Source: Candidatus Obscuribacterales bacterium
GTDB lineage: Bacteria > Cyanobacteriota > Vampirovibrionia > Obscuribacterales > Obscuribacteraceae
DNA: 64,000 bases
Direction of reading: 5' to 3'
Assembly: GCA_965228855.1 (NCBI GenBank)
Contig: CBDDIJ010000003.1
Location: 2,528,001-2,592,000, forward strand
The position numbers and the translations under genes were made by a program. The notes under the pieces were generated by a model, which did no database searches, was not told where the DNA came from, and worked only from the letters and a program-made list of their open reading frames with translations. Position 1 is the stretch's first letter. The number at the start of each line of letters is the position of its first letter. Shown in pieces: positions 1-39,693 of this stretch.

Positions 1-1216
1 CTCCTCCCACAGGTACAGCATCCGGAAGGAGGTTGTTTAAACTCTGTACGACAGAAACTTCAGGCGGCCGTCCAGAAGGAGGGTTTGCGGAATTGGTATC
101 GGTGGTGAGAGATATAGGACTGCCCGAGGGCGCATGGCTTCTAAGAATGGCTGGTAAGGCAACATCGCTTGGCCCATCTTTCACAGGTTCTGCCTTAACC
201 ACCGGCGGAAGAGACGCAGGTGTTTCCAACCTCGGCACCGTCAATTTAGATGCCGGTGGCGTGGGCGTGACGTTCTCGACGACATTAAGCAATCGACTCA
301 AGTCGCTCGCCAGATCAGGATTGTTGACAGGCGCCAACGATTCATAGTCGGACGAAGTGACGCTCCCTTGCTTAGCTGGTTTAGCCGGCGGTAAAATTCC
401 GTCGCTCAAAACTTTCACAATCGACTCCGGCGATGGGGACGCCGATAAAGGTTTAGTCCCAGCAGGCTCTACCTGCGCGGGTGTCGCCAGGCTAGATTCA
501 CCATGGGCGGTGCCGCTGAAGACTTCAATACCCGGCAATATCGAAAGTTTGGAAGCCGCGGGAGACGGTTTCGCACTGTCGGACAGTGATGGTTTGGCAG
601 TGAAGGATGTTGAAGAGTTCTGAACTTCGATGCTGATGGATGGCAGGTGAGGTGTCGCAGTTTCGACTATGGGAACTGGCTTGATTCCAGCATTGGCAAC
701 CAGTGCAGCCAGGGGCGCTGATGGTTCCGCACTATCGCGAAGAAGATCCGCCCCATTGTGTTTCGTCTCAGCGTGCCTGGGCGTTGGTACCGAAACATTA
801 TCCTGGGACGCGGCAGCCACGACCGGCAGAATTTGAAGGTCTCCCGGTCCGCTGTCATCCTTAGTATCTTTATCCTTGTTAGGATGCGGAGCCTCGACGC
901 TCGTTTGAGCAAGAATCTCTGACAGCGACTTTGCAGCACTGATACTTACGTCACTGGGACCAGCCTCAGGAGAGGTGCTGGAGGTCGAACCAGATTTCAT
1001 GACCGGCAACGAGGCAAGGGACACATCACCGCGAATTCCCGCAGGCGAGGCCGAATGCGAAACCTCCGACGAGACCGCGGAAGGTACAACGTCCCCGGCA
1101 GAATGAGGAGCTGTCACCGAATCTGATTTCGGTGGTGCGGTTTCGAGAATATCAATCTGAAAATCCAAATTGGCAGGCGCATCGGACTGCCCAGTAGGCG
1201 CGAAGAAATCTTCCAT
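1..1216 (-). CDS. Partial Pro/Ser/Ala-rich low-complexity hypothetical protein (runs off the window start)
   Basis: Manual translation from ATG at 1216 (MEDFFAPTGQSDAPANLDFQIDILE...) is stop-free down to position 2 (~405 codons). It is absent from the ORF track because its stop lies outside the window. An in-frame GTG at 1252 is an alternative start. Confidence 0.8.
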   Translation of the reverse strand, partial: MEDFFAPTGQSDAPANLDFQIDILETAPPKSDSVTAPHSAGDVVPSAVSSEVSHSASPAGIRGDVSLASLPVMKSGSTSSTSPEAGPSDVSISAAKSLSEILAQTSVEAPHPNKDKDTKDDSGPGDLQILPVVAAASQDNVSVPTPRHAETKHNGADLLRDSAEPSAPLAALVANAGIKPVPIVETATPHLPSISIEVQNSSTSFTAKPSLSDSAKPSPAASKLSILPGIEVFSGTAHGESSLATPAQVEPAGTKPLSASPSPESIVKVLSDGILPPAKPAKQGSVTSSDYESLAPVNNPDLASDLSRLLNVVENVTPTPPASKLTVPRLETPASLPPVVKAEPVKDGPSDVALPAILRSHAPSGSPISLTTDTNSANPPSGRPPEVSVVQSLNNLLPDAVPVGG

Positions 1217-1319
1217 GGCGGTAAATAATTGGGGCGATGGGGGAAGAAACACGAACGCGATACAAAGGGTTATGGGGGGTATCGAGTTGCGTAGTAAAAC
1301 TTCAAGGGGCATTGGAAGT

Positions 1320-1333
1320 TTGATATACGTCAA
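1320..1333. promoter_or_regulatory. FNR/CRP-family-like palindromic site
   Basis: TTGAT-ATAC-GTCAA is a 9/10 match to the FNR consensus TTGAT-N4-ATCAA and lies in the divergent intergenic region. Confidence 0.35.
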
Positions 1334-1414
1334 TATGCGAAACGGAAAATTCCTGGACAGTCGGCGAGATTAAATCTCGTCGACCGAGAAGAATTGCCGT
1401 GACAGCCGGTCCTA

Positions 1415-1601: not shown

Positions 1602-4600
1602 ATGGCTTCAAAGTCAACGGCAGCAGCGCAAACAGATCAGACGCCGACATCTACACCAGGCAACGCTCAGCTCGCCCAAACTCAGGCTGGGAGAGATACA
1701 ACGCCAGCAGCCGGCAGTGACGCCACAACTGGTGTTGCACCACATACGGAAGTACTGCAGGGCGACAACGTCCTCAGCCAGAGTCCTCAGCCAGGCACTG
1801 CCAACGAAACTGCCGCGAAGATCATTCAACAACAGAACGAAGCGACCGGTGTGGGGGGTGTTCGCGGCGACGCCAACAATCCTATTAATACTGCGCAGAC
1901 GACAGCAGAAGTTCGACGAGCAGAAGCCGTCGCAAGAACAACCAGCACGACTCCGACCGATGCTAAGGCTCCGGTCTCAAAACCAACAGACACGGCTCCT
2001 GCGACACCGACAACAGCAGAGACTCGCAGGCAGGAAGCACTGGCAAGAACGACCTCTACACCGGCAGACGTAAAACCGCCTGCCACCACTCCTGGTGACA
2101 CTCCGGCAACCACGCCGTCGGTTGCGGAGACGCGCAGACAAGAAGCGCTAACTAGATCGAGCAGCACGCCTGCAGATGCGAAACCGGCAGATGCAAAACC
2201 GCCGGCAGCGAATCCAGTCGAAGCGAATCCAACGTCGCCGACCACAGCAGAGACCAGACGGCAAGAAGCATTAGCTAGAACTACTGGAACACCCACCGAC
2301 GCGAAACCGGCAACAGGAAATCCTAACGACACGAATCCAACGGCACCGAGTTCTGCTGAAGTTCGAAGACAAGAATCCCTTGCTAGAAACACCGGTACGA
2401 CCGTCGATGGAAAACCGCCGGCCGCCACCGCCGGTGATGCCACGCTACCCGGACAATCGCCCGCAGAAACTAGGCGGCAAGAAGCTTTGACAAGGACTGG
2501 AACCACGCCTGGTACCACGCCTGGTGCCGAGGTGAAAGCTCCGGCAGCCAACCCGGGTGAGGTCAATTCGCCGACTCGCTCGCTTCAGGATTCCAGACTT
2601 CAGAGCGCCCTGGATAGAAGCGGTAAGGGACCCGCCACCGGCGAGCAGCCATCCGGCAGCAATCCACTCGGTCCTACTGCAGAGCAGAGAAGAGCCGACG
2701 CAATAGCGCGTACCGGTGCACCTGATGTGAAACCCGCAGCGCCCCGAACCGATGCCACTGCGGTGACACCTGGAGCCAGCCCGGCAGAACAGCGTCGGGC
2801 TGAAGCACTCACCAGAGCCAATGCTACAGACAACAGACCGGCTGCACTCGCAGGCGACGGGAAGCCGCCTGTTCAACCAACTGGCGACGTGAAACCGGCT
2901 GCGGCATTATCCCCGGAACAGCGCAGAGCAGAGAGCATTGCCAGAAACAATGCCACAGATAACAGACCTGCAGCACTCACCGGCGACGGAAAGCAGCCCG
3001 TTCAACCAACTGCAGAAGTTAAACCAGCTCCGGCACTCTCGCCGGAACAGCGCAGAGCGGAAAGTATTGCCAGAAACAATGCGCCGGATAATAGACCCGC
3101 AGCACTTGCCGGTGACGGGAAAACACCTGTACAACCGACTGGCGAAGTTAAACCAACTCCTGCACTCTCACCAGAACAGCGCAGAGCGGAAAGCATCGCC
3201 AGGAATAATGCACCGGATAACAGACCCGCAGCACTTGCCGGCGACGGCAAAACAACTGTGCAACCGACTGCCGAAGTGAAACCGACTGCGACACTCTCAC
3301 CCGAACAGCGCAGAGCCGAAAGTATCGCTAGAAATGGCGCGACGGACCACCGCCCACCCGGCACAGTTGCGGATGCCAATCCGACGAGAAACATCACCGG
3401 AGACCCACCCGCGACCGGTACGGAGCGACTGAAAGGACGAGATCGGGTTGCTGACGCACCAGCGGACACGGCAAAACCGCCAGGAAAGGGCAACGCGACG
3501 GGCGACACAGTGAGACCCACGGTTAAGGCGGATGCTCCTGCCGATGCGGGAAGACGTGCGGTCAAAGCCGATGCCACAGATACCGGCACTCCTCCAGGCA
3601 GTGGTTCCACCGACTCGTTCCTGAACGGCCGCCAACAACGACAGCTTGAAACACTTCGGCAGCAAGCAGAAACCGGAACCCTCACCAGAAGCGAGCAGCG
3701 CCAACTGGAAAGACTCACGGCACTTGAAACGAGGAAAGCCGAAATTGCTTCCGCACCCACGGATCCGAGAACCCGAGCACCGAAGGTAGAAACGGTACCC
3801 AAAGCAGAAGCGCCGGCAGGCGAGGTACCCAGACCGCCGAGAGCGGAAGCACCTGGAAGCGAGTTGCCCAGAACTCCAAGAGCCGAAGCGCCGGTAGCTC
3901 AACCTAAAGAGAACAGACGAGGCACCACTGAGGCACCAACCGGAAACCCCACAGGCAATCCGTTAGTCAACCCTGATGGCAATCCTAAGGGGCGCAATAG
4001 AGATGGAGGCGTCACTGCGGAGCAGCCGCCAGGTACCGAGCGCGGACCATTTAAGCCGGGTGCTGATCCAGCTCTCAAGCCTGGCGTTGAATCTGTGTTT
4101 AAACCTGGTGGAGAACAGGCATTTAAGCCAACCGCTGATATGTCTCCCAGAGACATTCGCAGAGCACTTGCGGAAGCGCGTCAAAACCAGCCCCTCGATC
4201 CTGCTCAGCAAAAGTGGCTGGCAGAACAAACAGCTAAAATGGGCGATGGTCGCAGTCAAAACTTCGCGAGAAACTTCGAGAATCTATCGCCACAAAATCG
4301 CGCCGCTCTGATGGGTCTGGAAGGACCGCAACAAGGCGATATGATTGCCAAGCTCGGCAGAGGTCGTGCCGACATCTCAGCAATTGAAGGAAAGCTGGGC
4401 GCAGTACCAGGAGGAGATCTCAGAGCCGGGCGCACCGCAGATGGTGCCGTTGCCGGAGGCAAACCTCCACTCGGTTTGGACGGTCTGAAAGGTCCTGGTG
4501 GCGATCTTGCCCGCGGTCCTGGTGGCGACCTCGCTCGAGGTCCTGGTGCAGACCTGGCCAAAGCGCTGCAGCGCGCAGACCTCAAAATTCCTGGTCTAGA

Positions 4601-7109
4601 TGCCGCGGATCCGTCGAACAGACGATTTTTGGCGGACGCTTCATTGCGTTTCAACAATTTGAAGTTCGATGGCACCAACGCAAATATGAAAGTGTCAGAC
4701 GTTCTCAAAGGCATGGATCCTCAGAAGGTAATGGCGCTGGAAAAATTCCTTGCTGGAAACAACCAGATGCTTGAGCCGGGCAAACTCACATTCGGACAGT
4801 TGGACCAAACCAGAGTCACGCAGCTTCAAAGCCTGTTGCGTGGTAATTTTGATGCCTCTGGCCGTCAGCTGACTCCTCAAGAGTCATTCAGGCAATTGAC
4901 TCAGGGACTACTGGCTCAGCAAACAGACTCAAACCTGATAGGAAGAGGACGACTTCCCGAAGTTGGCAAACTGCTCAACGAGCAGCCGACAGCCAAGCTA
5001 TCGGAGATGGTATCCAGAACTCTCGATGCGCGTTCGCCCGTTGGCACCATGGGTGGTGCCGGAGGAATTGGCTCATTCGATTTCGGTCGTTTTGATTTCA
5101 CAGCAAAACTCAACCCCGTTCAAGAAATCCATGTGCGCAATTTACTCGACAACAGCTCCAAACTTGCAACCTTACTTGAGCAAAACATCGCGCGTACAGA
5201 CTTAACTCAGCCGAGATTTGACGTAGGGAAAGCAATTGGCTTGGCGCAGGTGATGGCCACCACCCTCGGTGACAGTCGCGGTGATTTCGCGGTGCGCGGT
5301 GATGTTCGAGCCATGATTGACAGCACTAGTGCGGTACGCGTTAATGAAGCCGGAGAGATTGTCAACACTGCCAGTGGTGCCAAGTCAGCTGACTACATTG
5401 CGAAACTTCCAATCGACGCAACAACCGGCTTGCCTTATGACCCAGCCAGCGGCAAGCTTCTCGACCCCAACACGGGCAGACCTATCGGAGACCGAGTGGC
5501 GGAAGAGAAAAAATCGTCAGACAAGAAATGGGACAAGGACGACGAAGAACTCGACGAAAAAGAGAAGAAAAAGAAAAAGCAAGACTCCGATGTCGACTCA
5601 GAGAAAGCGAAACAGAAAGCGATGCTCCTTCTACTTCAAGCGAAGAAAAAACGCGAACAGGAGCTCAAAGACAAAGCGCTTCGCGATCAAAAACGCAAAG
5701 AGGAAGACGAGAAGCGAGTCAAATACATCTGCAAAGACGGCGATACTGTTCAGTCGATCGCTCTCAAACAACTTCGCGACAGCCGCGTGACGGCTCTGAT
5801 CTACCAGATCAACAAAGAGGTCATACCTACCAAGATAGTCAACGGAGAACAAGTACCTGTCCTCCATGCCGGTCTGGTAATCTGGCTACCCTCACCCAAG
5901 GAGATCCGAGAGTTCCGCACCAAACTGGTCAGCGGTTCTCAACCCGGGACAGGACCGCAAGGAGCGAATGAGTTCGCATCTGTCGAAGACGAACTTGCAG
6001 CACGCTTCGGTGAAAACTGGGCCGGTGATGGCGAATCAAGCCCTGGAGAAGAAGCGGGCTCTGCTTCAGCACCGGCAGTTCCTCAACAAAATAGCATAGA
6101 GAAGAAACTTATGGACGACGCAATCGCAGACGCAAAGCGCCGCCGCGAAAATATCGAGGCCGCACTTGGTCCAATCGCATCAAGCAAAGCAGCGAATCGG
6201 GCGCCCACAGGACAAATCATCTACCAGGTCAGGCTCGGCGACACTCTTCGCTCCGTAGCGCAGAAGCAGCCATCCCTCGGCGATGTTCATCTGTGGCGTT
6301 TGCTTGCCGAAGTGAACGGCTTGTCGACAGAAACCGACGCCAAAGGTCAGCCGGTAGCCGGTCTGTCGCGTGGCAGCAAGATTAAACTCCCGACTCAACA
6401 AGAAATCGCAGACTATCGACAACGAATCGGCTCTATGGCCGGTCAGCCGATGCCGCGAGAACAACGCATCTCAAAAACCTGCCGCACTTGCGGCAAAGTC
6501 AATCCTGCTGCTGCATCTTCGTGCCCAGGCTGCGGATACAAATTCGGCACGATCACGCAGGCGAACGTTCCAACAGGTACCGCCCCAGTGCCGACTTCAT
6601 CCGTTCCAAGTTCCGTTTCGACGACGCCAGTTCCGACCTCGCAAGCGGGCGGACCCGAGCAATCGCAACCGAAAGACGCAGCAACAATACTTCTTGAAGG
6701 CATGAGCCAAACAACCGTTGGACGCACCGAAGATCTAGATCAACCTCCACAACGACCAGCCACTGTTAATGTCGACGCGGCTCAATCCGCGCCTCAAACA
6801 GAAGCGCAAATGTGGGCGTCGGTCAAAGACTTCGAAGCAGGTTGCCGGCTCGCCAAATCGGCCCACTCGTGGGAGACCGCAAGCGGCAAACTCGTTATTC
6901 AGCTGCAAATTAAAGAGACCGACAAGGATTGGTATCCGATTTTGGAATACGACATATTCGAATCGCATGCGCTCAGACACAGCTTCATTCGTGAAACCGG
7001 AGCGAAGAAGAGCGTCCGTATAGACTTGCCTGCTGCAGCAGCGATGGAGCTAGCGCAAAACGACCTTCTTGCAAATTGGAACAACTACAAAACCAAATTC
7101 TTTGCATAA
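1602..7109 (+). CDS. Giant repeat protein (1835 aa) with C-terminal 2x LysM-like domains, zinc ribbon and conserved terminal domain
   Basis: Long ORF with a GGAG RBS. N-terminal A/P-ExRRxExxAR repeats; LysM-like YICKDGDTVQSIA (5724) and YQVRLGDTLRSVA (6222); zinc ribbon CRTC...CPGC (~6480-6534). No signal peptide or TM segment seen. Confidence 0.9.
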   Translation: MASKSTAAAQTDQTPTSTPGNAQLAQTQAGRDTTPAAGSDATTGVAPHTEVLQGDNVLSQSPQPGTANETAAKIIQQQNEATGVGGVRGDANNPINTAQTTAEVRRAEAVARTTSTTPTDAKAPVSKPTDTAPATPTTAETRRQEALARTTSTPADVKPPATTPGDTPATTPSVAETRRQEALTRSSSTPADAKPADAKPPAANPVEANPTSPTTAETRRQEALARTTGTPTDAKPATGNPNDTNPTAPSSAEVRRQESLARNTGTTVDGKPPAATAGDATLPGQSPAETRRQEALTRTGTTPGTTPGAEVKAPAANPGEVNSPTRSLQDSRLQSALDRSGKGPATGEQPSGSNPLGPTAEQRRADAIARTGAPDVKPAAPRTDATAVTPGASPAEQRRAEALTRANATDNRPAALAGDGKPPVQPTGDVKPAAALSPEQRRAESIARNNATDNRPAALTGDGKQPVQPTAEVKPAPALSPEQRRAESIARNNAPDNRPAALAGDGKTPVQPTGEVKPTPALSPEQRRAESIARNNAPDNRPAALAGDGKTTVQPTAEVKPTATLSPEQRRAESIARNGATDHRPPGTVADANPTRNITGDPPATGTERLKGRDRVADAPADTAKPPGKGNATGDTVRPTVKADAPADAGRRAVKADATDTGTPPGSGSTDSFLNGRQQRQLETLRQQAETGTLTRSEQRQLERLTALETRKAEIASAPTDPRTRAPKVETVPKAEAPAGEVPRPPRAEAPGSELPRTPRAEAPVAQPKENRRGTTEAPTGNPTGNPLVNPDGNPKGRNRDGGVTAEQPPGTERGPFKPGADPALKPGVESVFKPGGEQAFKPTADMSPRDIRRALAEARQNQPLDPAQQKWLAEQTAKMGDGRSQNFARNFENLSPQNRAALMGLEGPQQGDMIAKLGRGRADISAIEGKLGAVPGGDLRAGRTADGAVAGGKPPLGLDGLKGPGGDLARGPGGDLARGPGADLAKALQRADLKIPGLDAADPSNRRFLADASLRFNNLKFDGTNANMKVSDVLKGMDPQKVMALEKFLAGNNQMLEPGKLTFGQLDQTRVTQLQSLLRGNFDASGRQLTPQESFRQLTQGLLAQQTDSNLIGRGRLPEVGKLLNEQPTAKLSEMVSRTLDARSPVGTMGGAGGIGSFDFGRFDFTAKLNPVQEIHVRNLLDNSSKLATLLEQNIARTDLTQPRFDVGKAIGLAQVMATTLGDSRGDFAVRGDVRAMIDSTSAVRVNEAGEIVNTASGAKSADYIAKLPIDATTGLPYDPASGKLLDPNTGRPIGDRVAEEKKSSDKKWDKDDEELDEKEKKKKKQDSDVDSEKAKQKAMLLLLQAKKKREQELKDKALRDQKRKEEDEKRVKYICKDGDTVQSIALKQLRDSRVTALIYQINKEVIPTKIVNGEQVPVLHAGLVIWLPSPKEIREFRTKLVSGSQPGTGPQGANEFASVEDELAARFGENWAGDGESSPGEEAGSASAPAVPQQNSIEKKLMDDAIADAKRRRENIEAALGPIASSKAANRAPTGQIIYQVRLGDTLRSVAQKQPSLGDVHLWRLLAEVNGLSTETDAKGQPVAGLSRGSKIKLPTQQEIADYRQRIGSMAGQPMPREQRISKTCRTCGKVNPAAASSCPGCGYKFGTITQANVPTGTAPVPTSSVPSSVSTTPVPTSQAGGPEQSQPKDAATILLEGMSQTTVGRTEDLDQPPQRPATVNVDAAQSAPQTEAQMWASVKDFEAGCRLAKSAHSWETASGKLVIQLQIKETDKDWYPILEYDIFESHALRHSFIRETGAKKSVRIDLPAAAAMELAQNDLLANWNNYKTKFFA
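2778..3340 (+). repeat. 129-nt (43-aa) coding tandem repeat
   Basis: SPEQRRAESIARNN-x-xDNRPAALxGDGKxPVQPTxEVKP units start at ~2910, 3039, 3168 and 3297 (last one partial), with a diverged unit at ~2778. Confidence 0.9.
4491..4562 (+). repeat. 24-nt coding repeat (GPGGDLAR x3)
   Basis: Translation GPGGDLARGPGGDLARGPGADLAK. Confidence 0.8.
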
Positions 7110-7671: not shown

Positions 7672-10600
7672 ATGGCCGACAAACCAGATCCAAAAGCTGA
7701 AAATGCGAAAGACCCGAGCACGGAGCCGGTTAAACCGACTTCGGACAGCACCGCAAGCAAACCGGATGCCGGCGACTCGCATGTCGTAAGCAGTACAAAC
7801 CCGAACGTTCAGACCGACGTCGCGGCAAGCAGCATGACCGATGCTGTGGAGAAAGCACAGACGTTAAACCAGGCAGAGCGCCAGGACCAGACCGGCACTC
7901 AATTTGTTCAGGGTCCGGACAAATCGGACGTGGAACTCTTTGACTCCTCTAAAGAGCCCGCCTCCGACGCTGCGAAAAAAACAGGGGATTCGGACCAGCC
8001 AGAGAAAAAAGAGGTTGCCGAAAGCGCCGACACTGGAGTTAAGACCGAACAGAGTGAATCTAAGCCGGATGCTGGAACAGAAGCTATTCTCTCCAAGTTA
8101 CCTGCTGATCATCAACGAGTTCTCGAAGGCTTACCGCCCGATGCACGCGCTAACTTTGCCAAGCAAATAGACGGCATGGAAGGCGAGTTTGCTCAGAAGA
8201 TGAAAGCCCAGCAGCTGTCAGCGCTTGTTGATACTTTCAATAAGACTACCAAGAATGGTGAAAACGCAAAAATCGGCGACACTATAAACGTCGAAGGAGT
8301 GGTGCGTTCGATTCAGGCGGAAAGAGCAAGAGGTACCTCTGCTGCGAATCGAGGAGGCTCAGCAACCGCAGCACTCGTCAGCGAAGCACCACCAACGAGG
8401 ACTGAAGCTACCGATCCCAATCACGGCACGATTGCGGAAGCTCGCCAGCCGGTCAAACGCGAGACCAGCACACCGACAGCGCCTTCCGACGTCCCTAGTT
8501 CGCAGGTAGCAACCGGAGACGTTCCCGTCACCGTGGTCAAATCAGCGGAACCAGTTGATATAGCTTCCGCAGATCCAAGAAAAGCAGAAGCCGAGCAACG
8601 ACAAGCGGCAGGCGACAAACAAGTTAGCGATTTCATAGCCACCCAGACAGGGGAAGCAAAAGCACCTGCCGACTCTCGTAAATCAATAGCTCAGCAAGGA
8701 TTCGAACCAAAGCCAGGTGCCTACAATCCTGTTAATGTTCCTGGATTCTCGGAAGAAGGAGTTGGCGACCAACATACGTCGCTAAAAGAATCCAAAGTTG
8801 ACAATTACGATATCGAGTCTCGGCAAATGAGCTCGATGACTCGAAATTCAGACAACAGCATCACGAGAACCTACACGGGTGCGATTGATACCGCGGGCAT
8901 GATCTCCTTTTCGTCCGATACAACATTTCAAGCACATGAAACTATAACCAAGGACAACAAGCTTGAAAGTCGGTCTGTAACCTACAATCAGCCTCTTGAG
9001 CTCACGTTCGACACACCTGACGGTCCAAAGAAAATTGCCGACGTCAAAGCTGTTGATACCAAATATGATGCTGCGCGTGACAGATATGTTTCGACAATCA
9101 GAAGTGCGGACGGCAGTCAGCATGAGGCAATCGTAAAAACAGATGGCTCTGTAGAGAAATTCGAGCAGACAGTAAAACTGACGACCGCCGAATATACAAA
9201 AGGCGTGGAAACGAAAGTCTGGCAAGACAGAAACGGCACCATCACTCAAGTTCAAGAGGGTGATGAACGATGGTCTAAGCAGTCAGGAACTGATAAGTGG
9301 GTAAAGCAAAACGCGAACGGCGATTACATCGACGCTAACAATAAGGTTGTTTCGTCAGCATCTGAAGCGGCTTCTTTCACCGGAAGATACGAATTCGTCA
9401 CCTCGCCGCAAAAGGGTTTAGCAAAAGTCGATACAGCTCAACAACAAGCGATCACTAAGTACGCCGATGGATCGCAAGAGCGGATCGTCGGTCTGAAAGG
9501 CGCTCCGGAATTCACGGTTCGAACATCCGCCGACGGCAAGGTGTCGCTGGATTCTCAGTGCGGACACTTCAGCGTCGACGATAAGTCGATGGAAGTCTTG
9601 CCGAATGGAGACATCAAATTCAAAGACACCGACGGACAAAAGACTCTGAATACTGACGGTTCACTGACCAGCACTTACTCGAATCGTACCAACAGTTTTC
9701 AGTCGGTCACAGAAGGTTTCAGCCCGGAGGGCGGACGTTACATCAAGTCAATCAACTTCGGTGAGCAAGCCAAGATCAGCGGCATGGACATGGCCGGCAC
9801 TTGGACCCTGGGTGAAGACGGCAAACTGCACAATGGCTCGAAAACATTCGATGGAGAGTTGAAACTTAAGGACTCATCGACCCTTTCGTACACGGTCATG
9901 GCACCGGAAGGAGTCGAAGGAAACGGCGTACTTCACGGAGACGGAAGCAATTACACCGCATACTACGACGCCGGAAAGAACTTCTCGAAATCTGTCGAGG
10001 GTCTGAAAGACGGCTCTACGATCGAACGGCGCTACTCGTTTACACCCGACGAGCAGAAAGAGCTGAACGCGCGCTACGGCGACCAATTCAACTTCAATGA
10101 AATCACCAGAACGGACGCGAAGGGGCAGACGATCAAACTGATCGAAGCGGCGTCGAAAGGGCACGTCGACGGAGAAGACGACAGTCATATCGTTCAAGCG
10201 ACTGACCCGACAGGAAGAACTTGGAGCCTCATCAATCAGGATAAAAACACCTGGGGCGAAATCGACGCAAAAGGGAAACCCGTTAAAGGCACCAACGGTG
10301 AACAAAACACCTTCACCGGCAATTGGGCGATGCGAAAAGATGGCAGCGGAAACAGCACAGTCACTCGCATCATAGGTGCTCAATCCGAAACGAACAACGC
10401 CTTCAGTGCGCGCTTCCTGGTCGACTACAGGTCAGATGGCGAGATTACGATCACGAACCAAGAAGTCCCGATGATCGGTTACAGCACAGACGCAATGATT
10501 GGCCCTGGCGTTCAACGCGGCGCAAATGGCGATCTGACAATCACCAGCGTCAACACTAAAGACCAATTAACAATCAAGGCAAACGGAGATGTCGTTTCAT

Positions 10601-25552: not shown

Positions 25553-26128
25553 TCAGTCTGCCGTCAGCTCCCGGAATCTAGTAAGTTCGCCATCATGGGT
25601 CATGTTGCGGAGCTTGTAAACAACATCGACGGTAATTCGCTCACCCTCAACTGTTAGAAAGTGGTGATTGTTATCATCGTCGAAAAAAACCGCATAGTGT
25701 TTCAGCGTACCGGGTTTCTGCTCCCAGTAGTAAAACAACGAGCGTCCATTGAATTTCGCACCTGGAACTCTTTTGCGCTCACCCCAGACATCGACAATGA
25801 TTCCAGCATCGTCCATCATGAGTACAATCTCTTCGGCGGGTCCCTCGTCCGCATCTTGAAACGGCAGCTGCGGAGGATGTAGAACCAAAAATTCATCTGT
25901 GAATTCTGCTACCGGAGCATTGCGACCAGCAGAGGAGAACGTTTTTCCGCGACTGTCGCGCAGCGTTTTTTTCAGGTCACGAACATCGAGTTCGTCCACA
26001 AAACTGAGCGATTCGGTAAACTGCTCACCGGATGGGAAAGCATTTCCTGTGCCGGTCGGAGAAACACCTGGCAGACTTGCATGTCCGCCCTGGGCATCGT
26101 TGTTAGATTCGTCGTCTTGAGGGTCCAT
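25553..26128 (-). CDS. Hypothetical acidic protein (191 aa), last gene of the ATPase operon
   Basis: ATG-initiated ORF 45 nt downstream of the HerA-like gene; disordered N-terminus and a beta-rich C-terminal domain. Confidence 0.75.
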   Translation of the reverse strand: MDPQDDESNNDAQGGHASLPGVSPTGTGNAFPSGEQFTESLSFVDELDVRDLKKTLRDSRGKTFSSAGRNAPVAEFTDEFLVLHPPQLPFQDADEGPAEEIVLMMDDAGIIVDVWGERKRVPGAKFNGRSLFYYWEQKPGTLKHYAVFFDDDNNHHFLTVEGERITVDVVYKLRNMTHDGELTRFRELTAD

Positions 26129-26173
26129 AAACTATTCTGTTCCAACCGCGCTTCGTGCTTGAGACCTAGTCTA

Positions 26174-31515: not shown

Positions 31516-34500
31516 TAGCTGGCCTTGTCGCTATCGCTGTCTCTATCCTTGCTCTTCTTGCTCTTCTTCTTATCGCCGAAACTATCAGTGATGGCGTGCA
31601 TTTTCTCAACCAACTTGCGATTGATCTTCTTCTCCGAGATGTCTTTGAAGTCAGGCGCCCTCATCTTAAAGACACCAGCTACGGTACCAACTCTGTAACA
31701 GAAATACGTCTGAATTTCTTGACCGACGATTCTGTCGATATTCAGCTTTTCTTCGTCCATAATCAACTCGAACTGTGGCGAAGTGTTGACCTGGTTAAAG
31801 AAGTTCTGAATCGTCTGGTGTTTGATCTTTCGTCCATCCACACGGAACATCTGCGGACCAAGCATATCGCCGTCCTTCTTAGAAAGTGCGAAGACAGCCA
31901 TGGTGCCCATATTGATCGTCAGTTGGTTTCTGTAGTCCTCGGGAAGGTGTTGCAGAGTTTTGATACTGCCGACGAAACCAATCTGGTACCGACGAGTTTC
32001 CGAAGTAATCGTTTCGATTGTCTCCTTCTCGATGAAGCTGTCCATTTCATCGAGATAGAGAGAAACTGGACGATCGTCGTTATTCGACTTCGACAAGTTC
32101 ATAGCCGCTTGCTGAATTCCAGTCACAATCAAGCTTCCCAACAGGTTGGCGTTCTGGTCCAACTCGCCTTGTGGAACTTTTACAATCAGAATCTTTTTCT
32201 GCTTGATGATGTCTTTCAATTTAAGGTCACTGACCGGCTTCGTAAGAATCGGCCGAATACGTCCATCCGAAAGCATCGGTCCAACTCTGTTCAAAATCGG
32301 CTCAACCCAGTTGATCCACTGATCCGTTCTAGCCAGCTTCTTGTACTGGTTCCAAGTTTCCAGAATGGTAATGTACTCGGTCTTGTCGTGTTTTTTACGC
32401 TCAACAGCTTCCAACATGATGTCGCGGAAATCGTTGTCCTGCAGGAGGTTTGGCAGGTCGGTCAAGGTTCGTCCATTGGCCATCAACAGCAAGGCCGCGT
32501 TTCTCAAAATGTTGGCAGTTTGGGCGTTCCACTGACTCTGAGCCCCTGGAGGCTCGGTGTAAATTGCTTTAAAACCGTGAACGATTGCCGACGATGCCGC
32601 TTGCAGGTCGCCATCATCCGGCATCTCGAGAGGGTTGTACGCTAATGAACCGGCTTTGTACGTCGGGTCTACGAGTACCACGCGCTTAGCGTATTTCGAA
32701 CCTTCAGGCTGCGAAGCGATCCACTCAATGATCAAATCACACAGCTGTCCGTCGGAATCGATCAAAACAACTGCTCGATCTTCAGACTTGATGTCATGCG
32801 TGATCATTGATGCCATCAGCCGCGTCTTACCCTTGTCACCGCCGCCGATGCACAATATATGTGGGTTGGCCCTGCGAATATCAGGAGGAAGATTCAAGAA
32901 TTTAGGTGTCCAGAATGACCACCAGCCCCACTCCATGCGCGTCCCGAACGGAGTGCCGCCTGGTGTGAGAGCCTTACCGTACTCACGAACCATTTTCATA
33001 TGATCAGGTCTGAACTGCGACGGAATGTATTTTTGTTTCTCCCAAACGTTCATCCAGCCCGAAGGGCCGAAGAGCTTGAGGAAGAACAAGAATATGAATA
33101 CACCCAGCGCTACCAAACCGAGCGCGATGGTTAGGAACATCTGCTGGAGGTTGCCAGGTCCAGGTTTTCCGGTTGTCGCGGGAGTAGGTACGTTGACCAG
33201 ACCAGGCTTGGGCAGACTCATATTAGGCAATGCAAACGCACCTGCTTGAGGATTGTTGGCAGCAACCATCGTCTGCGATGCGCGCCACTTGCCTCGAATA
33301 GGTATGACTTTCGACGGCTTCAATGTGCTGAATGAAGAGCCGACGCGCTTCTGAGTTTGATAGGCTCCGACGGCTTGAAGCTGAGCGCCGTTAGGTATCA
33401 ACTTTCCTTGAAAGACTATGTACTCATTGTGAGCGTTGTATTTATGCCGCGACTCCTGATCGTATCTCATGTTGAACATGATGACGTCCGGTGCTTGCAG
33501 TTGCCCCTGTATCTCGAACACACCAGACGAGTCCTTGCCCTGACCGGCAAAATTGACGCCGCCCTGGTTCAAATTCATTTGTCCGGTCAGGATCTTCGCT
33601 CCGACCTGACTTTCAATTGTCCAGTTGCCACCAACGACTGGAATTCCATTGGTGAACTCCGCCGCAGGCGCCTGTTGTCCCTGACCAGGCATCCCCTGAC
33701 CTGGCATCGTCTGTCCGGGTTGACCCTGTCCGGGCATACCTTGCATGCCCCCCTGCCCAGGCATTCCACCGGCAGCCGACATCGCACCCTGACCGGCGAG
33801 ACCACCGAAAGCCCCAGCTCCCTGTCCCAATCCGGAGCCAGCTCCAGAACGGCCACCGCCCAGACCTCCCAGACCACCGAGGGCTCCCATGCCACCACCT
33901 GTGGGGGCTTGGGCAGTCTGCTGTTGTGCTGCGCTACCGTTCGCCATGTTGACGAAACTCATCACCCAGCCCGGGATCTGAATGGCAATAAAGAGCCCGA
34001 CTGCACATAGCACGCCGGCCGTTTTTCTTGAAACATTCAATCCTATGAATTTGACATCTTCTTCCAGCCAGCCGAGTGCGCCACCAGGTGCTCCGCTGGA
34101 AGCGTCATCTTCGTCTTCGTCGTCATCGGAAACCTTTCCTTTTTTGACTGCTTTCGTTATTGTCTTTGCTCTAGACTTAGGAGCAGTCTCATCACCACTG
34201 AAGTTCCGACGCTTCGGCGGTTTGTATTTCGGCTTATCATCATCGTCATCATCATCTTCTTCATCGGAAAGCTTGTCTTCGATGTCGCTCGAGGATGAAA
34301 CATTCGCATCATCGTCGCTGACCTTCAAGCGCGTCTTTGTCTGAGTCTGGGTCAAGCTCTTAGGCATGGCTACCTTAGGACGATCTTGGGCAGTTGAGTC
34401 TACCGCAGAATCAGGAGTCTGCTGCTGAGTGACGGAGGACGCCAGATCGGAACTGGTATCAGCGGAGACGGCCGGAGAACTGACATTTGGTTTATCGGAA

Positions 34501-36026
34501 TCATCGGAGAATGACTGTTTTCGGGCAGCAGCGCTGGCCGGGCTGGAAAAGAAATCAAAACCGTTATCGTCATCGCCGAAGAAACTCGAGGACTCCGCGC
34601 GCTTCATCTCCGGTTCCGGCGATGACACCGCGGGCGGTTCCGCTGCCGGCGCTGCGGCAATCGGAGCGACCGGCGCTGGCGGAGCGGCAGGAACCATTAG
34701 TGTTTCTGCACTTGGGGTGGCTGAGCGTGCGGAAAAACTTTCCAATGACGTGCTCGCCGTATCAGGTATATTGGTTTCAGCAGTGACATCCGACTCAATC
34801 GGATTTCGCTCCGGTTCTGCTTTGGTCTGAGGACCAAAGAAATCTTCGAGTTCAGATTTACTGCCGGCTTCAAAAAAGTCGTCCTGAGAATCTCGTGCGG
34901 CACCAGGCTCGGTACCAGGTGCGAAATTGTCCGCAAATGAACTTGTTTCGGAAGATGGCTCAGCCAGCGGACTCTCGGTGGCGGGCGAAACAGATTCAAG
35001 AGCAACCGACTCGCGAACCGGTGCTGTCGACTGGGTCGGCTCCACAGATTGAGAATCGCTCGGCGCCTGCGTAGCCTCAGCCCGTTTGTTCAACATCTGA
35101 TTGGCAACTGCTCCCACACCGATTCCGGCGCCAATGGCGATAGAAATTGCGGCTCCTGGGTGTGCCCCAAAGCCAGCCAGGTGCATGCTGGGATTTGTTG
35201 TAATCGAGGAGGATTGCGGTTGAGCCGCAGTCTCAGGTTGAACGTCTTGCGCCTCGAGATCTCGAGCAGCGGTTATCTCTGATGCGAGGGTCGGGAAATC
35301 AGTCGAGCTATCTTCCAGAGACATTTCGCCGAGCGCTTCAACCGCTTTGTTTTTCGGCTGCGCCGGCGGTTCAGGCTCTTCAATGAGCTCCACAGATTCG
35401 CGAGCATTTTTTAAGTAGTAATCGTTGGGACTTCCAGGACTGTAGAACCCGCTACCCGAGCTGGGAGCAGCGGGCTGTGCCTGCGGCTGAGGATCGGAAT
35501 TCCAGAATTCACCGGACGGCGCACTTGAAGAATTTTGCGCTCCAGGATCGACAAAGCGCCCCTCGGCAGGCGTCATCTGAGAGCCAGAGTTGCTCCAGCC
35601 GAAACCGTTAGGATCCTGAGCCGGGTCTGCGTACTGAAGAGTGGCGTACTGACTGCTGCCGCCGTTGCCTCCATATCCATCGTGCCCATTGCCGCCATAA
35701 CCGCCGTTGCCACCATTACCACTACCACCGTTACCCCCGTAGGCAGCATAGCCGGTTGTCGGAGAGTAGTCTTCTCCTCCGTCGTCGTACATCGGTGTGG
35801 ATGACACTTGCGGTCTCAGGGTCATGACACTGACCTGACGCTCAGTGACGACTCTCTCCAGCAGAAGATGGTCCTGGCTGTATCGCACGGCCAAAGGCGG
35901 ACGCTCAACCGGAAAGTTGGGCATCGCAGTCGGTGAGTTCAATGCCAGCTGTATGCCGCATCCGGAGCAATGCTTCCCCTTTGTCCGAATAACTACCCCA
36001 CAACTCTGGCAAATAAGAAGTTTCAA
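31515..36026 (-). CDS. Type IV coupling protein-like ATPase (VirD4/TraG/TrwB family) with zinc ribbon, long acidic linker, two TMs and a periplasmic beta-domain (1503 aa)
   Basis: HILCIGGGDKGKT Walker A, VVLIDSDG, YNPLE, LYLDE Walker B, ANLLGSLIVT, SETRRY; TMs GVLCAVGLFIAIQIPGWV and MFLTIALGLVALGVFIFLFFL; N-terminal CQSC...CSGC. TTG start. Confidence 0.85.
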   Translation of the reverse strand: MKLLICQSCGVVIRTKGKHCSGCGIQLALNSPTAMPNFPVERPPLAVRYSQDHLLLERVVTERQVSVMTLRPQVSSTPMYDDGGEDYSPTTGYAAYGGNGGSGNGGNGGYGGNGHDGYGGNGGSSQYATLQYADPAQDPNGFGWSNSGSQMTPAEGRFVDPGAQNSSSAPSGEFWNSDPQPQAQPAAPSSGSGFYSPGSPNDYYLKNARESVELIEEPEPPAQPKNKAVEALGEMSLEDSSTDFPTLASEITAARDLEAQDVQPETAAQPQSSSITTNPSMHLAGFGAHPGAAISIAIGAGIGVGAVANQMLNKRAEATQAPSDSQSVEPTQSTAPVRESVALESVSPATESPLAEPSSETSSFADNFAPGTEPGAARDSQDDFFEAGSKSELEDFFGPQTKAEPERNPIESDVTAETNIPDTASTSLESFSARSATPSAETLMVPAAPPAPVAPIAAAPAAEPPAVSSPEPEMKRAESSSFFGDDDNGFDFFSSPASAAARKQSFSDDSDKPNVSSPAVSADTSSDLASSVTQQQTPDSAVDSTAQDRPKVAMPKSLTQTQTKTRLKVSDDDANVSSSSDIEDKLSDEEDDDDDDDKPKYKPPKRRNFSGDETAPKSRAKTITKAVKKGKVSDDDEDEDDASSGAPGGALGWLEEDVKFIGLNVSRKTAGVLCAVGLFIAIQIPGWVMSFVNMANGSAAQQQTAQAPTGGGMGALGGLGGLGGGRSGAGSGLGQGAGAFGGLAGQGAMSAAGGMPGQGGMQGMPGQGQPGQTMPGQGMPGQGQQAPAAEFTNGIPVVGGNWTIESQVGAKILTGQMNLNQGGVNFAGQGKDSSGVFEIQGQLQAPDVIMFNMRYDQESRHKYNAHNEYIVFQGKLIPNGAQLQAVGAYQTQKRVGSSFSTLKPSKVIPIRGKWRASQTMVAANNPQAGAFALPNMSLPKPGLVNVPTPATTGKPGPGNLQQMFLTIALGLVALGVFIFLFFLKLFGPSGWMNVWEKQKYIPSQFRPDHMKMVREYGKALTPGGTPFGTRMEWGWWSFWTPKFLNLPPDIRRANPHILCIGGGDKGKTRLMASMITHDIKSEDRAVVLIDSDGQLCDLIIEWIASQPEGSKYAKRVVLVDPTYKAGSLAYNPLEMPDDGDLQAASSAIVHGFKAIYTEPPGAQSQWNAQTANILRNAALLLMANGRTLTDLPNLLQDNDFRDIMLEAVERKKHDKTEYITILETWNQYKKLARTDQWINWVEPILNRVGPMLSDGRIRPILTKPVSDLKLKDIIKQKKILIVKVPQGELDQNANLLGSLIVTGIQQAAMNLSKSNNDDRPVSLYLDEMDSFIEKETIETITSETRRYQIGFVGSIKTLQHLPEDYRNQLTINMGTMAVFALSKKDGDMLGPQMFRVDGRKIKHQTIQNFFNQVNTSPQFELIMDEEKLNIDRIVGQEIQTYFCYRVGTVAGVFKMRAPDFKDISEKKINRKLVEKMHAITDSFGDKKKSKKSKDRDSDSDKAS

Positions 36027-36657: not shown

Positions 36658-39600
36658 ATGGCACGGGACGAAGACAGTAACGGCAATGGCAATGGCAACG
36701 GAAATGGAAAGTCTGGAAGACAAGACTCGCCGCTCTCCGCTCGCAGAGCCCGTCTACGCTCATTAGCGAAACAGGCGCTGCCGCCGGATCCTTACTCAAA
36801 AAAGCAGGATGCGGAAGGCGAAGATCCAGCCGCGGGATTTGAATTTGCCGATCAGCAAGGAGCCGCGAGCGGAGCCGTCTCGCAGCCACAGCAGCCTACT
36901 CAACAGAATCCCGAACCCTGGCTCGATGAGGCCATGAAAGCAATCACCCAGGCTCCCACACAGGAAGGCGCGGTTCAGCAGCAACCACCTGCGATGCCAG
37001 TCGGTCACGATCCGAACATGCTCGGGATGCAGTCTCAGATAGGCGACGCGGGCTTTGCAGCAAGCGGCACCTACGGGCAATTTCCGCAAGAAAACCCATT
37101 TCCACCCGACCACTTCAACCAGGGTCAAGCGCAGTTTCCATCACCGCAACAACAGTTTCCGCAGGAACAGCCTCCGTTTCCGCAAGATCCGGCTCAGCAC
37201 TTCGGACAACAACCTGACATGAGCCAGTATGCGGTTTCAACGGCTCAAACAGCCCCTGTGACTCCTCCACCCAACCCCGCGGCGGCAGATATCTTCGGCG
37301 AACAGGATGGAGAATCCTTCGAAAGTTTTATGCAGGGTCCTCCCGAGGCTCCTACAGCCTTCATGGGGATGTCGCAGGAGCCGGCCGGTTATGGTCAGAT
37401 GCCTGCCACGCCGGTGATGCCGACAGAGCCATCGACAGGGTTGGCTCAGGAACAGCCTGTTGAACCACTTCCACAGTCGACATCGCAATCGATTGAGGTT
37501 TCCTACCTGCCCAACTCAAGCGACAAAGATTTCGCGTCAAGTTTGGATCTGGACTATGGAGATCTCGATGATTCCAAGGTTTCAGGCGAAACTGACTCCG
37601 TGACGTCTGAGACAGCCGGAGATGCACCTCCTTCCGAATCCGGTGGAGACTCCGATGCGGAACTGGAAAGCCGACCGTGGGAAGTGAATAAGCCAGGTCC
37701 CGGAAAGATTGAGGATGCCTGGTCCGCGGAAGATGATGGCACAAAAACAGTTGCACGCAATTTGGTGACGGAACCGCCCCGTGAACCTATACCTGCCAGA
37801 GAGGAAGAAGCGCCCAAGGAGCCGGCACCAGCCCCGAAGAAAAAGAGCCGGCGCAAATCTGATCCGGACGAGGTCTCGGAAAAAGCACCAGAGTTAAAGG
37901 CTTCTGATGAAGCGGACGAGCTGGGCTCGGAGAATTCGGAGAGTTCGGAGTCCGGCGAAGTAGAATTACAAAAAACTGAACGAAGACCAGCTCACTCAAA
38001 GAAGGTCGAAGAAGAAGAGAAGCCCGAACAGCAAGAAAGAGCAGAGAAGAAATTGCAAGACCCATCGCCTTCGACTGCGGACTCGCCATCAGGGTCTGTA
38101 GTTCCTGTTGAACTCCTCACGAAGTCACAAGCAGAAGCGCTGGAGTTGCTAACCTCAATCGACCAGGCGCTCGGTATCTGCGCAATGAATTTATCCTCGC
38201 TGCAGAGCGCGTCGATAGAACAGACCGACGTCATTAAGAACCTTCGCGAGACTCTTCAGAATCAAACATTTTTTGAACTGGGATTGAACCTTAACACCTT
38301 GATGGAATCCATGTCAGCCGCTCTCGAGCCGATGAAGGCAGTGGGCGAATTGGTTCCAGCCATCGATCAGCTGGTATCGACAATGGTGGCACAGGAGGAG
38401 GTCAAAAAGGAAACGCGTCTCAGCCCTGACAAGCTGGTCATGAGCCTTGCCGACCAACTCGGAAACGGTCAAATCGATCCATGGACGTTTAAATGTGCAT
38501 ACATGGCGGTCTATCCGGACGAGCATCCTGCCGATTTGCTTCATCGTCTCGTCGACCTGCTAGGCACCCAGAGACTATCGGGCGACATGTTCCGCGCCGC
38601 CTATGACGCGGTTCAAGCAGCTGAACCACCGCGTCGCGTAATGAATGGCGACAAGGAAGTAATTGAAGTCGTCAAGGAAGTAATCAAGGAAGTAGAAGTC
38701 GTTAAGGTTGTTCCGGACGAAGAGGTTCTTCGACAGCTTGAAGACTTGCGGCGAGCCAATGATGACCTCAAAGCTCTCGTCGACGCTAAGGATTCCGATG
38801 TCGGGACCAAGTTCGAGGAGCGCGAGCGTGAGATGTCTCAGCGCCTCGAAGAGAAAGAGCAAGAGCTGAACAAACGCCTCGGCGAGCGCGAAGCGGAGTT
38901 CGCAGAACTGCTCGCTTCCAAAGAGCACGAAATTCAAGAAACACAAGAGATGCTGCATTCGCGGTTCGAAGAATTCAATTCGCGATATGAGGAAATGGTC
39001 GAGACCGTCAACCAGAGAGACGAAGAGCTCAAGGTCAAAGACGATGACCTGATGCGTAAGGAATCTGAGATCACGCAACTCAAAGCTCAACTCGATGAGC
39101 TCAAGGACTCTTTCAAAGAAACCGTAGACAATTTACAAAAGCAACTGACTACCACCCAGAAAGCCGCTCAAGAAGCCAGCATGCAAGCACAAGCGGTGGC
39201 AAAACCGGAAGAGCCCCAAAAGCCGGCTTCAAACTTCTTCGACACCGAAGCCAACAAGCCCGCACCAACAGGCAATTTCCTGGACAGCCCCCAGGCTCAA
39301 CGACCGCTGTTCCAAAATCAGATGGATACGTTCAACAGCATGTCAAAGGCTCCGCCCAGCCAACCAGGTGGACCACCCACGCCTGGCGGACCGCCTAGCG
39401 AACCCAAACCGTTCGGCGGAGGCGCTCCGCCTACCGCTCCAATGCCGGAACCATCGAACCAGGCAGTACCAAAACCTCCGCAGCCATCGCCCGGCATGAG
39501 CTCACTGACAGGCACGGGCAGCTACGGAAGTGGCGTGCGCGCACAGGTTTTCGAAGTCATAGTACGCCAGGCGCTTGCGGGCGCGCCGTGGCGCGAAATC

Positions 39601-39687
39601 TGCGCCGGTCCAATGAGCGTCAACAACATATCGCCGGACGAAGTTGAATCCGAAGTCAAACGTCGCGAGCAACTGCTCAAGAAATAA
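36658..39687 (+). CDS. Disordered/coiled-coil hypothetical protein (1009 aa)
   Basis: GGAGAAGG RBS; P/Q/E-rich N-half, helical block (IDPWTFKCAYMAVYPDEHPADLLHRLVDLLG), long E/K/L coiled coil, short C-terminal globular motif. Confidence 0.85.
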   Translation: MARDEDSNGNGNGNGNGKSGRQDSPLSARRARLRSLAKQALPPDPYSKKQDAEGEDPAAGFEFADQQGAASGAVSQPQQPTQQNPEPWLDEAMKAITQAPTQEGAVQQQPPAMPVGHDPNMLGMQSQIGDAGFAASGTYGQFPQENPFPPDHFNQGQAQFPSPQQQFPQEQPPFPQDPAQHFGQQPDMSQYAVSTAQTAPVTPPPNPAAADIFGEQDGESFESFMQGPPEAPTAFMGMSQEPAGYGQMPATPVMPTEPSTGLAQEQPVEPLPQSTSQSIEVSYLPNSSDKDFASSLDLDYGDLDDSKVSGETDSVTSETAGDAPPSESGGDSDAELESRPWEVNKPGPGKIEDAWSAEDDGTKTVARNLVTEPPREPIPAREEEAPKEPAPAPKKKSRRKSDPDEVSEKAPELKASDEADELGSENSESSESGEVELQKTERRPAHSKKVEEEEKPEQQERAEKKLQDPSPSTADSPSGSVVPVELLTKSQAEALELLTSIDQALGICAMNLSSLQSASIEQTDVIKNLRETLQNQTFFELGLNLNTLMESMSAALEPMKAVGELVPAIDQLVSTMVAQEEVKKETRLSPDKLVMSLADQLGNGQIDPWTFKCAYMAVYPDEHPADLLHRLVDLLGTQRLSGDMFRAAYDAVQAAEPPRRVMNGDKEVIEVVKEVIKEVEVVKVVPDEEVLRQLEDLRRANDDLKALVDAKDSDVGTKFEEREREMSQRLEEKEQELNKRLGEREAEFAELLASKEHEIQETQEMLHSRFEEFNSRYEEMVETVNQRDEELKVKDDDLMRKESEITQLKAQLDELKDSFKETVDNLQKQLTTTQKAAQEASMQAQAVAKPEEPQKPASNFFDTEANKPAPTGNFLDSPQAQRPLFQNQMDTFNSMSKAPPSQPGGPPTPGGPPSEPKPFGGGAPPTAPMPEPSNQAVPKPPQPSPGMSSLTGTGSYGSGVRAQVFEVIVRQALAGAPWREICAGPMSVNNISPDEVESEVKRREQLLKK

Positions 39688-39693
39688 GAAATA

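Follow-up and report, generated by a model that had tools for sequence, protein, structure and literature searches.

A conserved locus of Obscuribacterales that joins VirD4-like and HerA-type ATPases to LysM-bearing giant proteins, a candidate protein export module

Overview of the locus

The stretch of DNA described here, referred to as the window, comprises 64,000 nucleotides (G000:C3:2528001-2592000) of the 8.2 Mb genome, 95% complete, of a Candidatus Obscuribacterales bacterium. It contains a locus in which the gene of a coiled-coil protein (CC) is followed by those of a VirD4-like coupling protein (V), in some genomes a paralogue of V (P), a HerA/DUF87-family ATPase (H), and a smaller protein (S), and then by the genes of giant proteins with a common C-terminal cassette (G0, G1, and G2, Table 1). 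We consider it reasonably probable that V and H are the motor and substrate-recruiting module of a protein export machine, which would work like a type IV coupling complex combined with a toxin-export ATPase similar to that of type VII secretion. Export of proteins is likely because distant relatives of H directly precede toxin and immunity genes, evidence that is new to this analysis and that makes export, already proposed in a preliminary description of the window, the best reading of the function. The locus is chromosomal and non-mobile, with a conserved gene order, and is core to the order Obscuribacterales; it is not filed under any known system.

All seven open reading frames (ORFs) named in the preliminary description were found at their positions in the window ORF check. 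Its central observation, that two giants without signal peptides carry a common C-terminal cassette and converge on an ATPase operon, was confirmed by the ORFs, blastp, and hydropathy, with the addition of G0, a third cassette gene that had been missed. Obscuribacterales, an uncultured group related to cyanobacteria, encode large numbers of signal-less giants for which no export route is described, and the locus, together with two conserved VirB4 loci elsewhere in the genome, constitutes a concrete candidate for such a route. No description of the locus, or of the H ATPase family as an exporter, was found in the published literature covered, which did not extend to the supplements of the polymorphic-toxin surveys, whose neighborhood tables may bear on novelty.

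Gene neighborhoods of H in other phyla

The H family comprises 2,916 clusters at an E-value of 1e-30 or better and is present in about 2,600 GTDB stretches from many phyla, as well as from archaea. Plasmid-borne copies at 30-37% identity were found in 45 records, and two partial matches came from unannotated records of phages. In total, 79 H loci were examined, ten of them from Obscuribacterales. An ORF is present downstream of H in 70 of the loci outside the order (four have none), and the first two downstream ORFs, amounting to 135 proteins, were subjected to a Pfam scan. A toxin-type domain follows H in 11 of these 70 loci, in seven of them above the cut-off, with LHH, WHH/colicin DNase, CDI REase, endonuclease, and ADP-ribosyltransferase as the types represented. 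The gene that comes next is a SUKH immunity gene in two loci and DUF6985 in one, and an ankyrin gene is found in one further locus; the H locus of a Lactococcus plasmid adds a WHH nuclease together with DUF6985. In plasmids of Lactococcus and Bacillus, H, the nuclease, and a small gene are placed consecutively, and these loci start with a WYL gene and two dynamin genes. Hsp70-like and kinase genes recur near H.

A second recurrent neighbor is a zinc-ribbon gene located just upstream, present for 17 of the 35 assessable H proteins with a Cys-rich C-domain and for two of the 25 without it (seven loci were dropped because of short flanks and two were left out of the alignment). The zinc-ribbon proteins encoded there resemble the N-termini of V and P. 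In P0144 and P0171, H is fused to the domain of its upstream partner, in one case with membrane helices (matched by eye). The H proteins of Obscuribacterales form one clade in a quick tree (support of 100 in the Shimodaira–Hasegawa-like approximate likelihood ratio test, SH-aLRT), which joins the Cys-domain group at a weak support of 80.

In 16 H loci of anaerobes and proteobacteria (including L249, L254, L257, L258, L266, L269, L273, L276, L277, L280, and L282), a conserved protein of 200-320 residues, with a hydrophobic Gly/Ala/Ser-rich N-terminus and no Pfam family, is encoded mostly right after H. This protein is a candidate substrate or pore former.

We can tentatively speculate that H represents an undescribed and very widespread class of secretion ATPases, that is, a soluble single-domain HerA pump seated on a zinc-ribbon membrane partner, which may export signal-less polymorphic toxins in bacteria and archaea with no need of WXG100 or VirB components. 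Obscuribacterales would then have fused the zinc-ribbon anchor to VirD4, yielding a core machine that delivers giants via a dedicated type IV channel and pointing to a host-associated or predatory life. Beyond the order, about 2,900 clusters of DUF87 ATPases would thereby be tied to toxin–immunity pairs, by a mode of trafficking outside those given in the available sections of the polymorphic-toxin surveys of 2011-2012. Culturable hosts of H include Lactococcus cremoris pB26B, Bacillus sp. PGP15, Rhodococcus opacus PD630, and Streptomyces.

Structure of H and its relation to known ATPases

H consists of an α/β N-domain with a helical hairpin, a RecA core with intact Walker A and B motifs, and a helical C-domain with two CxxCxxxC motifs (about 26210-26977). 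It is predicted to be soluble, with one ATPase domain and no membrane helix (hydropathy and model; the model has a predicted local distance difference test score, pLDDT, of 88.6 and a predicted template-modeling score, pTM, of 0.78). H matches DUF87 above the Pfam cut-off and gives no match to P-loop_TraG (VirB4). Its best family is NF033849 of NCBIfam (ser_rich_anae_1, 'serine-rich protein'; E 2.8e-32, score 111 against a cut-off of 650), in which, as in DUF87, the N-domain and the ATPase are laid out as in H and to whose name no function is attached; H differs from it in having the Cys-rich C-domain and no serine-rich insert. The named relatives of H come from Obscuribacterales/Melainabacteria.

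All significant relatives of H but one in a profile search of the PDB are HerA-type DNA helicases or translocases, several of them of the defence type. The HerA-type core is what H has in common with the HerA-NurA, Sir2-HerA, and Ced (CedB/CedD) systems, but no nuclease, Sir2, or CedA partner is seen and all scores of H lie far below the cut-offs. Thus, for Ced, the match to CedD reaches 56 bits against a cut-off of 600, with no multi-pass protein in the locus, and a place among the HerA-NurA or Sir2-HerA systems is not indicated, neither NurA nor Sir2 being adjacent and S having no family match. Type VII secretion (EssC/YueA/EccC with WXG100 or LXG toxins) offers another likeness, an FtsK/HerA ATPase beside polymorphic toxin–immunity pairs, and relatives of H are similarly placed. 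However, H has a single ATPase domain and no membrane helix, and V a single ATPase, instead of three tandem FtsK domains. WXG100 (PF06013) has no match in the 95% complete G000, with matches in three of 14 controls, and the N-termini of the H neighbors gave no WXG/LXG match. In the available sections of two surveys, FtsK/HerA ATPases are tied to toxin export only via YueA and WXG/LXG domains (Zhang et al. 2012, PMC3482391; 2011, PMC3113570).

A stand-alone paralogue of H (L002, G000:C3:2797981-2800086, + strand) has no N-domain and a degenerate Walker B motif but keeps the Cys-rich C-domain; it was found in the genus, as well as in G020 and G022, and the gene next to it is reverse transcriptase-like by eye. 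Solo genes of the H N-domain, at 25-26% identity, are found at L300:14312-15286 (−) and L301:8195-9022 (+), one of them, in G017, being 3 kb from a G0-like cassette gene.

V, P, S, and CC

V starts with a zinc ribbon and an acidic linker of about 600 residues, which lead to membrane helices 671-689 and 965-983 around a β-rich domain; a third hydrophobic window at 290 is rich in Ala/Gly and ambiguous. The ATPase that follows (about 31587-32909) has intact Walker A and B motifs. TrwB_AAD_bind and T4SS-DNA_transf are matched above the Pfam cut-offs. Matches to the CD1115 model, which is VirD4-like, and to the TraD model are found for 30 of the 33 members of the V clade, in every case below the cut-off. 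A profile of V compared with the PDB gave TrwB (E 0.043) as the best match and DotL at E 0.56, neither significant, and no PDB match was found with the single sequence. On this evidence, V is placed among the VirD4 coupling proteins, with their membrane anchor and RecA-type ATPase. As in TrwB, VirD4, TraD, and DotL, two membrane helices precede a cytoplasmic ATPase but, unlike them, V carries a zinc ribbon at its N-terminus, an acidic linker of 600 residues, and a folded domain that separates the helices. Unlike known coupling proteins, it is encoded with neither VirB genes nor a relaxase, and its operon partner is of the HerA type, not VirB4. The profiles of V and H align poorly with each other (probability 8.6%). 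Two weak plasmid matches to V were found, and the one examined has no H in its 21 kb.

P is a truncated paralogue of V, with the zinc ribbon, the linker, one membrane helix (residues 426-444), and the β-rich domain. The zinc-ribbon segments are 48% identical over 63 residues, whereas the inter-helix domain is only weakly similar (24% over 89). The preliminary description of P as an ATPase-less paralogue holds in the window, but this feature is not constant, since the P orthologue in G006 carries an ATPase and nine of the 14 same-family loci that were mapped have no P. Because these loci contain a single V (nine), an ATPase-less P (three), or a second full ATPase (three, with G021 having both), P is an optional, variable duplicate of V. 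Its origin as an assembly artefact was rejected, as the V-H gap is 1.8-2.4 kb in five relatives of the genus and an ATPase-less P is found in G009 and G012. In L141 (G012:C2:686008-690491), V is split into a 959-residue membrane part and a 510-residue ATPase part, and the counterpart of G2 consists of two ORFs of about 3,150 residues each.

S is composed of an acidic leader and a conserved domain, for which no known family matches and the ESM Atlas gave no usable match. CC has a conserved middle domain and a C-terminal motif of 50 residues (window 39535-39687, +) that is nearly invariant across the order. This motif recurs in unrelated proteins, at least one per genome, for example at G000:C3:414163-415134 (−), and one of the proteins bearing it has zinc ribbons.

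VirB4 loci elsewhere in the genome

The preliminary description had reported that relaxase, integrase, VirB channel genes, NurA, and Sir2 are absent. None of these families is matched by the 22 largest ORFs of the window (Pfam scan), although VirB-type genes and Replic_Relax are present elsewhere in the genome. VirB4/6/8-10 and relaxase are likewise absent from the 14 mapped loci of the family, which sets the locus apart from conjugative type IV systems. Its earlier description as chromosomal and non-conjugative is supported, and its gene order is conserved in the family. No pore-forming or outer-membrane component was found within the locus by the Pfam scan and hydropathy.

Two VirB4 genes are located on the main contigs, with labels VirB3/6/8 assigned from size, hydropathy, and position and not from family matches. 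Locus A (C3:3043-3066 kb, 3043000-3066000) has its own VirD4 and a Replic_Relax gene, so that the absence of a coupling protein from both loci had to be rejected. Locus B (C2:1984-2008 kb, 1984000-2008000) contains VirB4, two large multi-helix VirB6-like genes, a VirB3-like gene, DUF2225, and TPR proteins. A neighboring gene matches TrbI weakly, and the locus includes neither a coupling protein nor a relaxase. A VirB4 channel locus without VirD4 is thus present in the same genomes as V, as in a type IV system with an unlinked coupling protein. Since the place is vacant in locus B, V is a natural candidate for its coupling protein. The VirB4 query found matches in all 24 genomes of the same family, in all three of the sister family, and, weakly, in one of 13 outside the order, and the gene content is kept in three mapped relatives for locus A and in two for locus B. 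As the two loci share the distribution of V and H, the proposal that the machine is free of a channel becomes doubtful.

DUF2225 and very large VirB6-like genes are found in both A and B. An apparent integrated element at G000:C2:1821000-1846000 has a third coupling protein and a relaxase-like neighbor (by eye), whereas the region G000:C4:35000-80000, where eukaryote-like fragments lie beside a complete-looking conjugative set of different composition, is probably assembly contamination (by eye). T-type type IV systems have been described in Vampirovibrio, with Obscuribacter mentioned only for respiration in the available sections of that paper (Soo et al. 2015, PMC4451040).

Conservation across relatives

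The search covered 40 relatives, 24 of the same family, three of the sister family, and 13 of other orders. H is present in 23 of the 24 (with an orthologue at 79-100% identity in 22), in all three sister-family genomes, and, weakly, in one of the 13. V was found in 22, three, and none, respectively, S in 20, none, and none, and both the cassette and CC in 24, three, and none, with some CC proteins recognized solely from their C-terminal motif. In 20 of the 24 family genomes, V and H lie next to each other in the same orientation; the other four are not assessable because a gene is missing or the contig is broken. In 19 genomes, a convergent cassette gene lies within 3.6 kb of H (two of these cases rest on a 3' fragment of H); G023 is an exception, and four are again not assessable. 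CC is divergent from V in 17 of the 24 and in all three sister-family genomes. The linkage foreseen in the preliminary description is therefore kept within the family, but not in the sister family, where CC and V remain by selA, 3-4 copies of H are found elsewhere, and a different contig carries the cassette gene, surrounded by unrelated genes. The ATPase domain of H is 86-98% identical across the order; in the sister-family copies it is 86-90% identical, with flanking domains at 35-43%. One H copy of G026 lies two genes from a giant with a single degenerate LysM-like C-terminus (by eye).

Proposed mechanism and its alternatives

We can propose that H would be tethered through the N-terminal zinc-ribbon segment of V or P, which would bind its Cys-rich C-domain, and that the zinc-ribbon gene upstream of H in other phyla may play the same role. 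Proteins that lack a signal peptide and begin with a polar or acidic low-complexity leader would be threaded by V and H in unfolded form, and G0, G1, G2, and perhaps S may be locus-linked clients or components dedicated to the machine. The envelope would be crossed via a channel encoded elsewhere, most likely by VirB4 locus B (G000:C2:1984-2008 kb). After leaving the cytoplasm, G1 and G2 would be retained on peptidoglycan by their LysM pair, with the variable N-terminal stalk projecting, and the cassette may be the end that carries the function or, at most, a signal restricted to G0-G2.

Several observations weigh against export by V and H. Homologues of V, S, CC, or the cassette (LysM or terminal domain) are present in none of the 74 H loci outside Obscuribacterales, and H therefore works without V there. 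In 59 of the 70 loci, neither of the two downstream ORFs has a toxin match in Pfam, no background rate stands behind the 11 that do, and ORF picking often chose wrong frames in GC-rich genomes. The leaders of the 11 toxin-domain neighbors are more acidic than background (median +0.08 vs -0.02), which favors export, but the comparison sets proteins from other genomes against a G000 background of 3,536 long ORFs. The zinc-ribbon association is clustered on the tree, with five changes, so that the Fisher p-value overstates it. The shared distribution of V, H, and VirB4 is uninformative because many genes are order-specific. In none of the three sister-family genomes, where S was not found, are the genes of V, H, and the cassette linked, and in G023 the cassette gene lies away from H. 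The cassette proteins have no recognizable toxin domain and no immunity gene after them, and a search of the genome revealed no canonical FtsK, which leaves room for a role in DNA transport.

Such a role is in our view unlikely. H, anchored by V and CC, would in that case replace FtsK in moving chromosomal DNA during cell division, or would serve the import or exchange of DNA in a Ced-like manner, while the LysM giants attach the assembly to the wall. The genome, which is 95% complete, yielded no canonical FtsK, its sole PF01580 match being a P-loop fragment in VirB4, and, as Iyer et al. are said to have noted in 2004, HerA can replace FtsK where the latter is missing. The high identity of the H ATPase across the order, the position of the locus by selA, rlmB, tRNAs, and tuf, the HerA-type PDB relatives, and the weak NCBIfam match to CedD would also suit a DNA pump. 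However, close relatives of H are patchy, often plasmid-borne, and have as neighbors genes of toxins, immunity proteins, dynamins, and Hsp70-like proteins rather than genes for division, and the 3-4 copies in the sister family have divergent N- and C-domains.

Giant proteins and their C-terminal cassette

The C-terminal cassettes of G1 and G2 match each other in blastp at E 1e-40 for the segment LysM-LysM-zinc ribbon and at E 4e-9 for the terminal domain. Their common parts are a short motif exclusive to these two proteins, a charged helix, two LysM domains, a zinc ribbon, and the terminal domain. In the AlphaFold model of G1 residues 1340-1835 (mean pLDDT 78, pTM 0.41), the two LysMs and the terminal domain are predicted with confidence. 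Both LysMs show the β-α-α-β fold in the model and fold search, with the Pfam LysM family matched above the cut-off for G2, and LysM 2 of G1 is the best conserved part of the cassette. LysM 1 of G1 superimposes on the LysM of a phage tail-tube initiator (9g8s_T) with Z 8.2 and a root-mean-square deviation (rmsd) of 1.4 over 53 aligned residues, and on E. coli Kbp (7pvc) with Z 7.1 and rmsd 2.3 over 62. Kbp and the tail-tube initiators, which give the best fold matches of both LysMs, are to our knowledge not classical cell-wall binders; compared with them, the cassette has no BON domain, the locus has no sheath, tube, or baseplate gene, and the DUF7718-like tip and the zinc ribbon are extra. The terminal domain scores above the DUF7718 cut-off of 25 bits in G1 (31.5) and G2 (29) and below it in G0 (23.8). 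No histidine in it reaches 90% conservation in the alignment. A fold search with a multi-domain model gave no clear match (best Z 6.2, rmsd 3.5, 78 aligned), the PDB profile search no significant match, and the ESM Atlas no usable match.

The remaining parts of the giants are far more variable, so that across orthologues a conserved cassette C-terminus is found under highly variable N-termini. G2 has an acidic leader, about 2,200 residues of β-hairpin/YD-like repeats (by eye; no Pfam match), and a Thr/Gln/Pro-rich spacer before its cassette, and the reading frames of its orthologues vary from about 760 to 5,950 residues. G0 has a low-complexity body, one LysM, and a DUF7718-like terminal domain. 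G1 and G2 contain no 19-residue hydrophobic window of 1.7 or above (hydropathy scan, not a signal-peptide predictor), and the hydrophobic content of their leaders falls in the lowest 1.2% among 3,536 long ORFs. G0-G2 do not qualify as polymorphic toxins, their C-termini being conserved, with no toxin match in Pfam and no co-oriented immunity gene.

The preliminary description took the cassette for the mark of substrates in a self-contained, channel-free machine, whose ATPases would read it as an export signal, like VirD4 with effectors. The tight linkage within the family, the conserved C-terminus under variable N-termini, and the single distribution of the cassette, V, H, and CC are in line with this, and in an antibacterial type IV system the coupling protein is said to recognize a C-terminal effector domain, which provides a precedent. 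We nevertheless regard it as quite unlikely, given the unlinked genes of the sister family, the lack of a pore or outer-membrane component in the locus, the two VirB4 loci elsewhere, and the inventory of giants. The terminal-domain profile finds three proteins in the whole genome, G0, G1, and G2, all at the locus. Of 114 ORFs of at least 1200 residues on the three main contigs, 16 pass a filter for a polar, non-hydrophobic leader, and these comprise two with the full cassette, two with a single LysM, and 12 with neither. Judged by these sequence counts, the cassette cannot be a general export tag for signal-less giants. The two giants with one C-terminal LysM each, also found by the cassette profile, are encoded away from the locus at G000:C2:1574461-1578885 (+) and C3:9455-14071 (+). 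The leader may be at least as good a candidate for the export signal as the cassette, since the toxins beside H relatives vary at their C-termini; the compositional support for it is modest.

Anti-phage defence, in which H would be the HerA component acting with an effector of the nuclease or Sir2 kind, is very improbable. In its favor, ten PADLOC HerA/mad8 models match H weakly (best E 7e-12) and several PDB matches are of the defence type, but H scores 41.9 against a cut-off of 800 for the NCBIfam anti-phage HerA, no NurA, Sir2, or nuclease match was found among the scanned window ORFs, and the locus is core and syntenic, unlike defence islands.

Features and surroundings of the locus

Table 1. 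Positions of the genes of the locus and of the cassette domains of G1 (window numbering unless a contig is given).
Feature	Position	Length or residues	Strand	Basis and description
G0, third cassette gene	1..1333 (5' part); whole gene G000:C3:2524960-2529333	1457 residues	−	Sequence comparison
G1	1602..7109	1835 residues	+	ORF; polar low-complexity repeats, then cassette
G2	7672..25497	5941 residues	+	ORF; cassette from about 23780
S	25553..26128	191 residues	−	ORF
H	26174..29374	1066 residues	−	ORF; HerA/DUF87-family ATPase
P	29545..31515	656 residues	−	ORF; V paralogue without ATPase
V	31515..36026	1503 residues	−	ORF; VirD4-like coupling protein
CC	36658..39687	1009 residues	+	ORF; coiled coil, divergent from V
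G1 LysM 1	5718..5927	about 1373-1442	+	AlphaFold model, fold search
G1 LysM 2	6207..6401	about 1536-1600	+	Model, fold search, alignment
G1 zinc ribbon	6474..6545		+	Two CxxC pairs; weak UPF0547 match below cut-off
G1 terminal domain	6810..7106		+	DUF7718-like; predicted five-strand meander and C-terminal helices

G0 is divergent from G1 and extends beyond the edge of the window. The locus is flanked on one side by a glycosyltransferase/phosphate-transporter cluster (upstream labels by eye) and on the other by selA-rlmB-tRNA-tuf. A mobile element was rejected because the locus is syntenic beside selA and tuf, and a contractile injection system because sheath, tube, and baseplate genes are absent from it. 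No RNA record carrying this DNA was listed. Contigs X2 and X4 are identical to the window over positions 24000-40000, although this DNA may itself have come from them, and contig X1 is probably the DNA of a relative.

Rfam found three tRNAs only in the window. They belong to the segment 46412-48104 (+), which carries tRNA-Thr, tRNA-Tyr, tRNA-Thr, and tuf, with a 157-base stretch without a call between the second and third tRNAs. At 49186-55989 (+) lies the gene of a 2267-residue protein with haemagglutinin repeats and what looks like a signal peptide. Its C-terminal segment has similar counterparts in about 20 of the genome's 45 longest ORFs (by eye), which form a second, larger family of giants.

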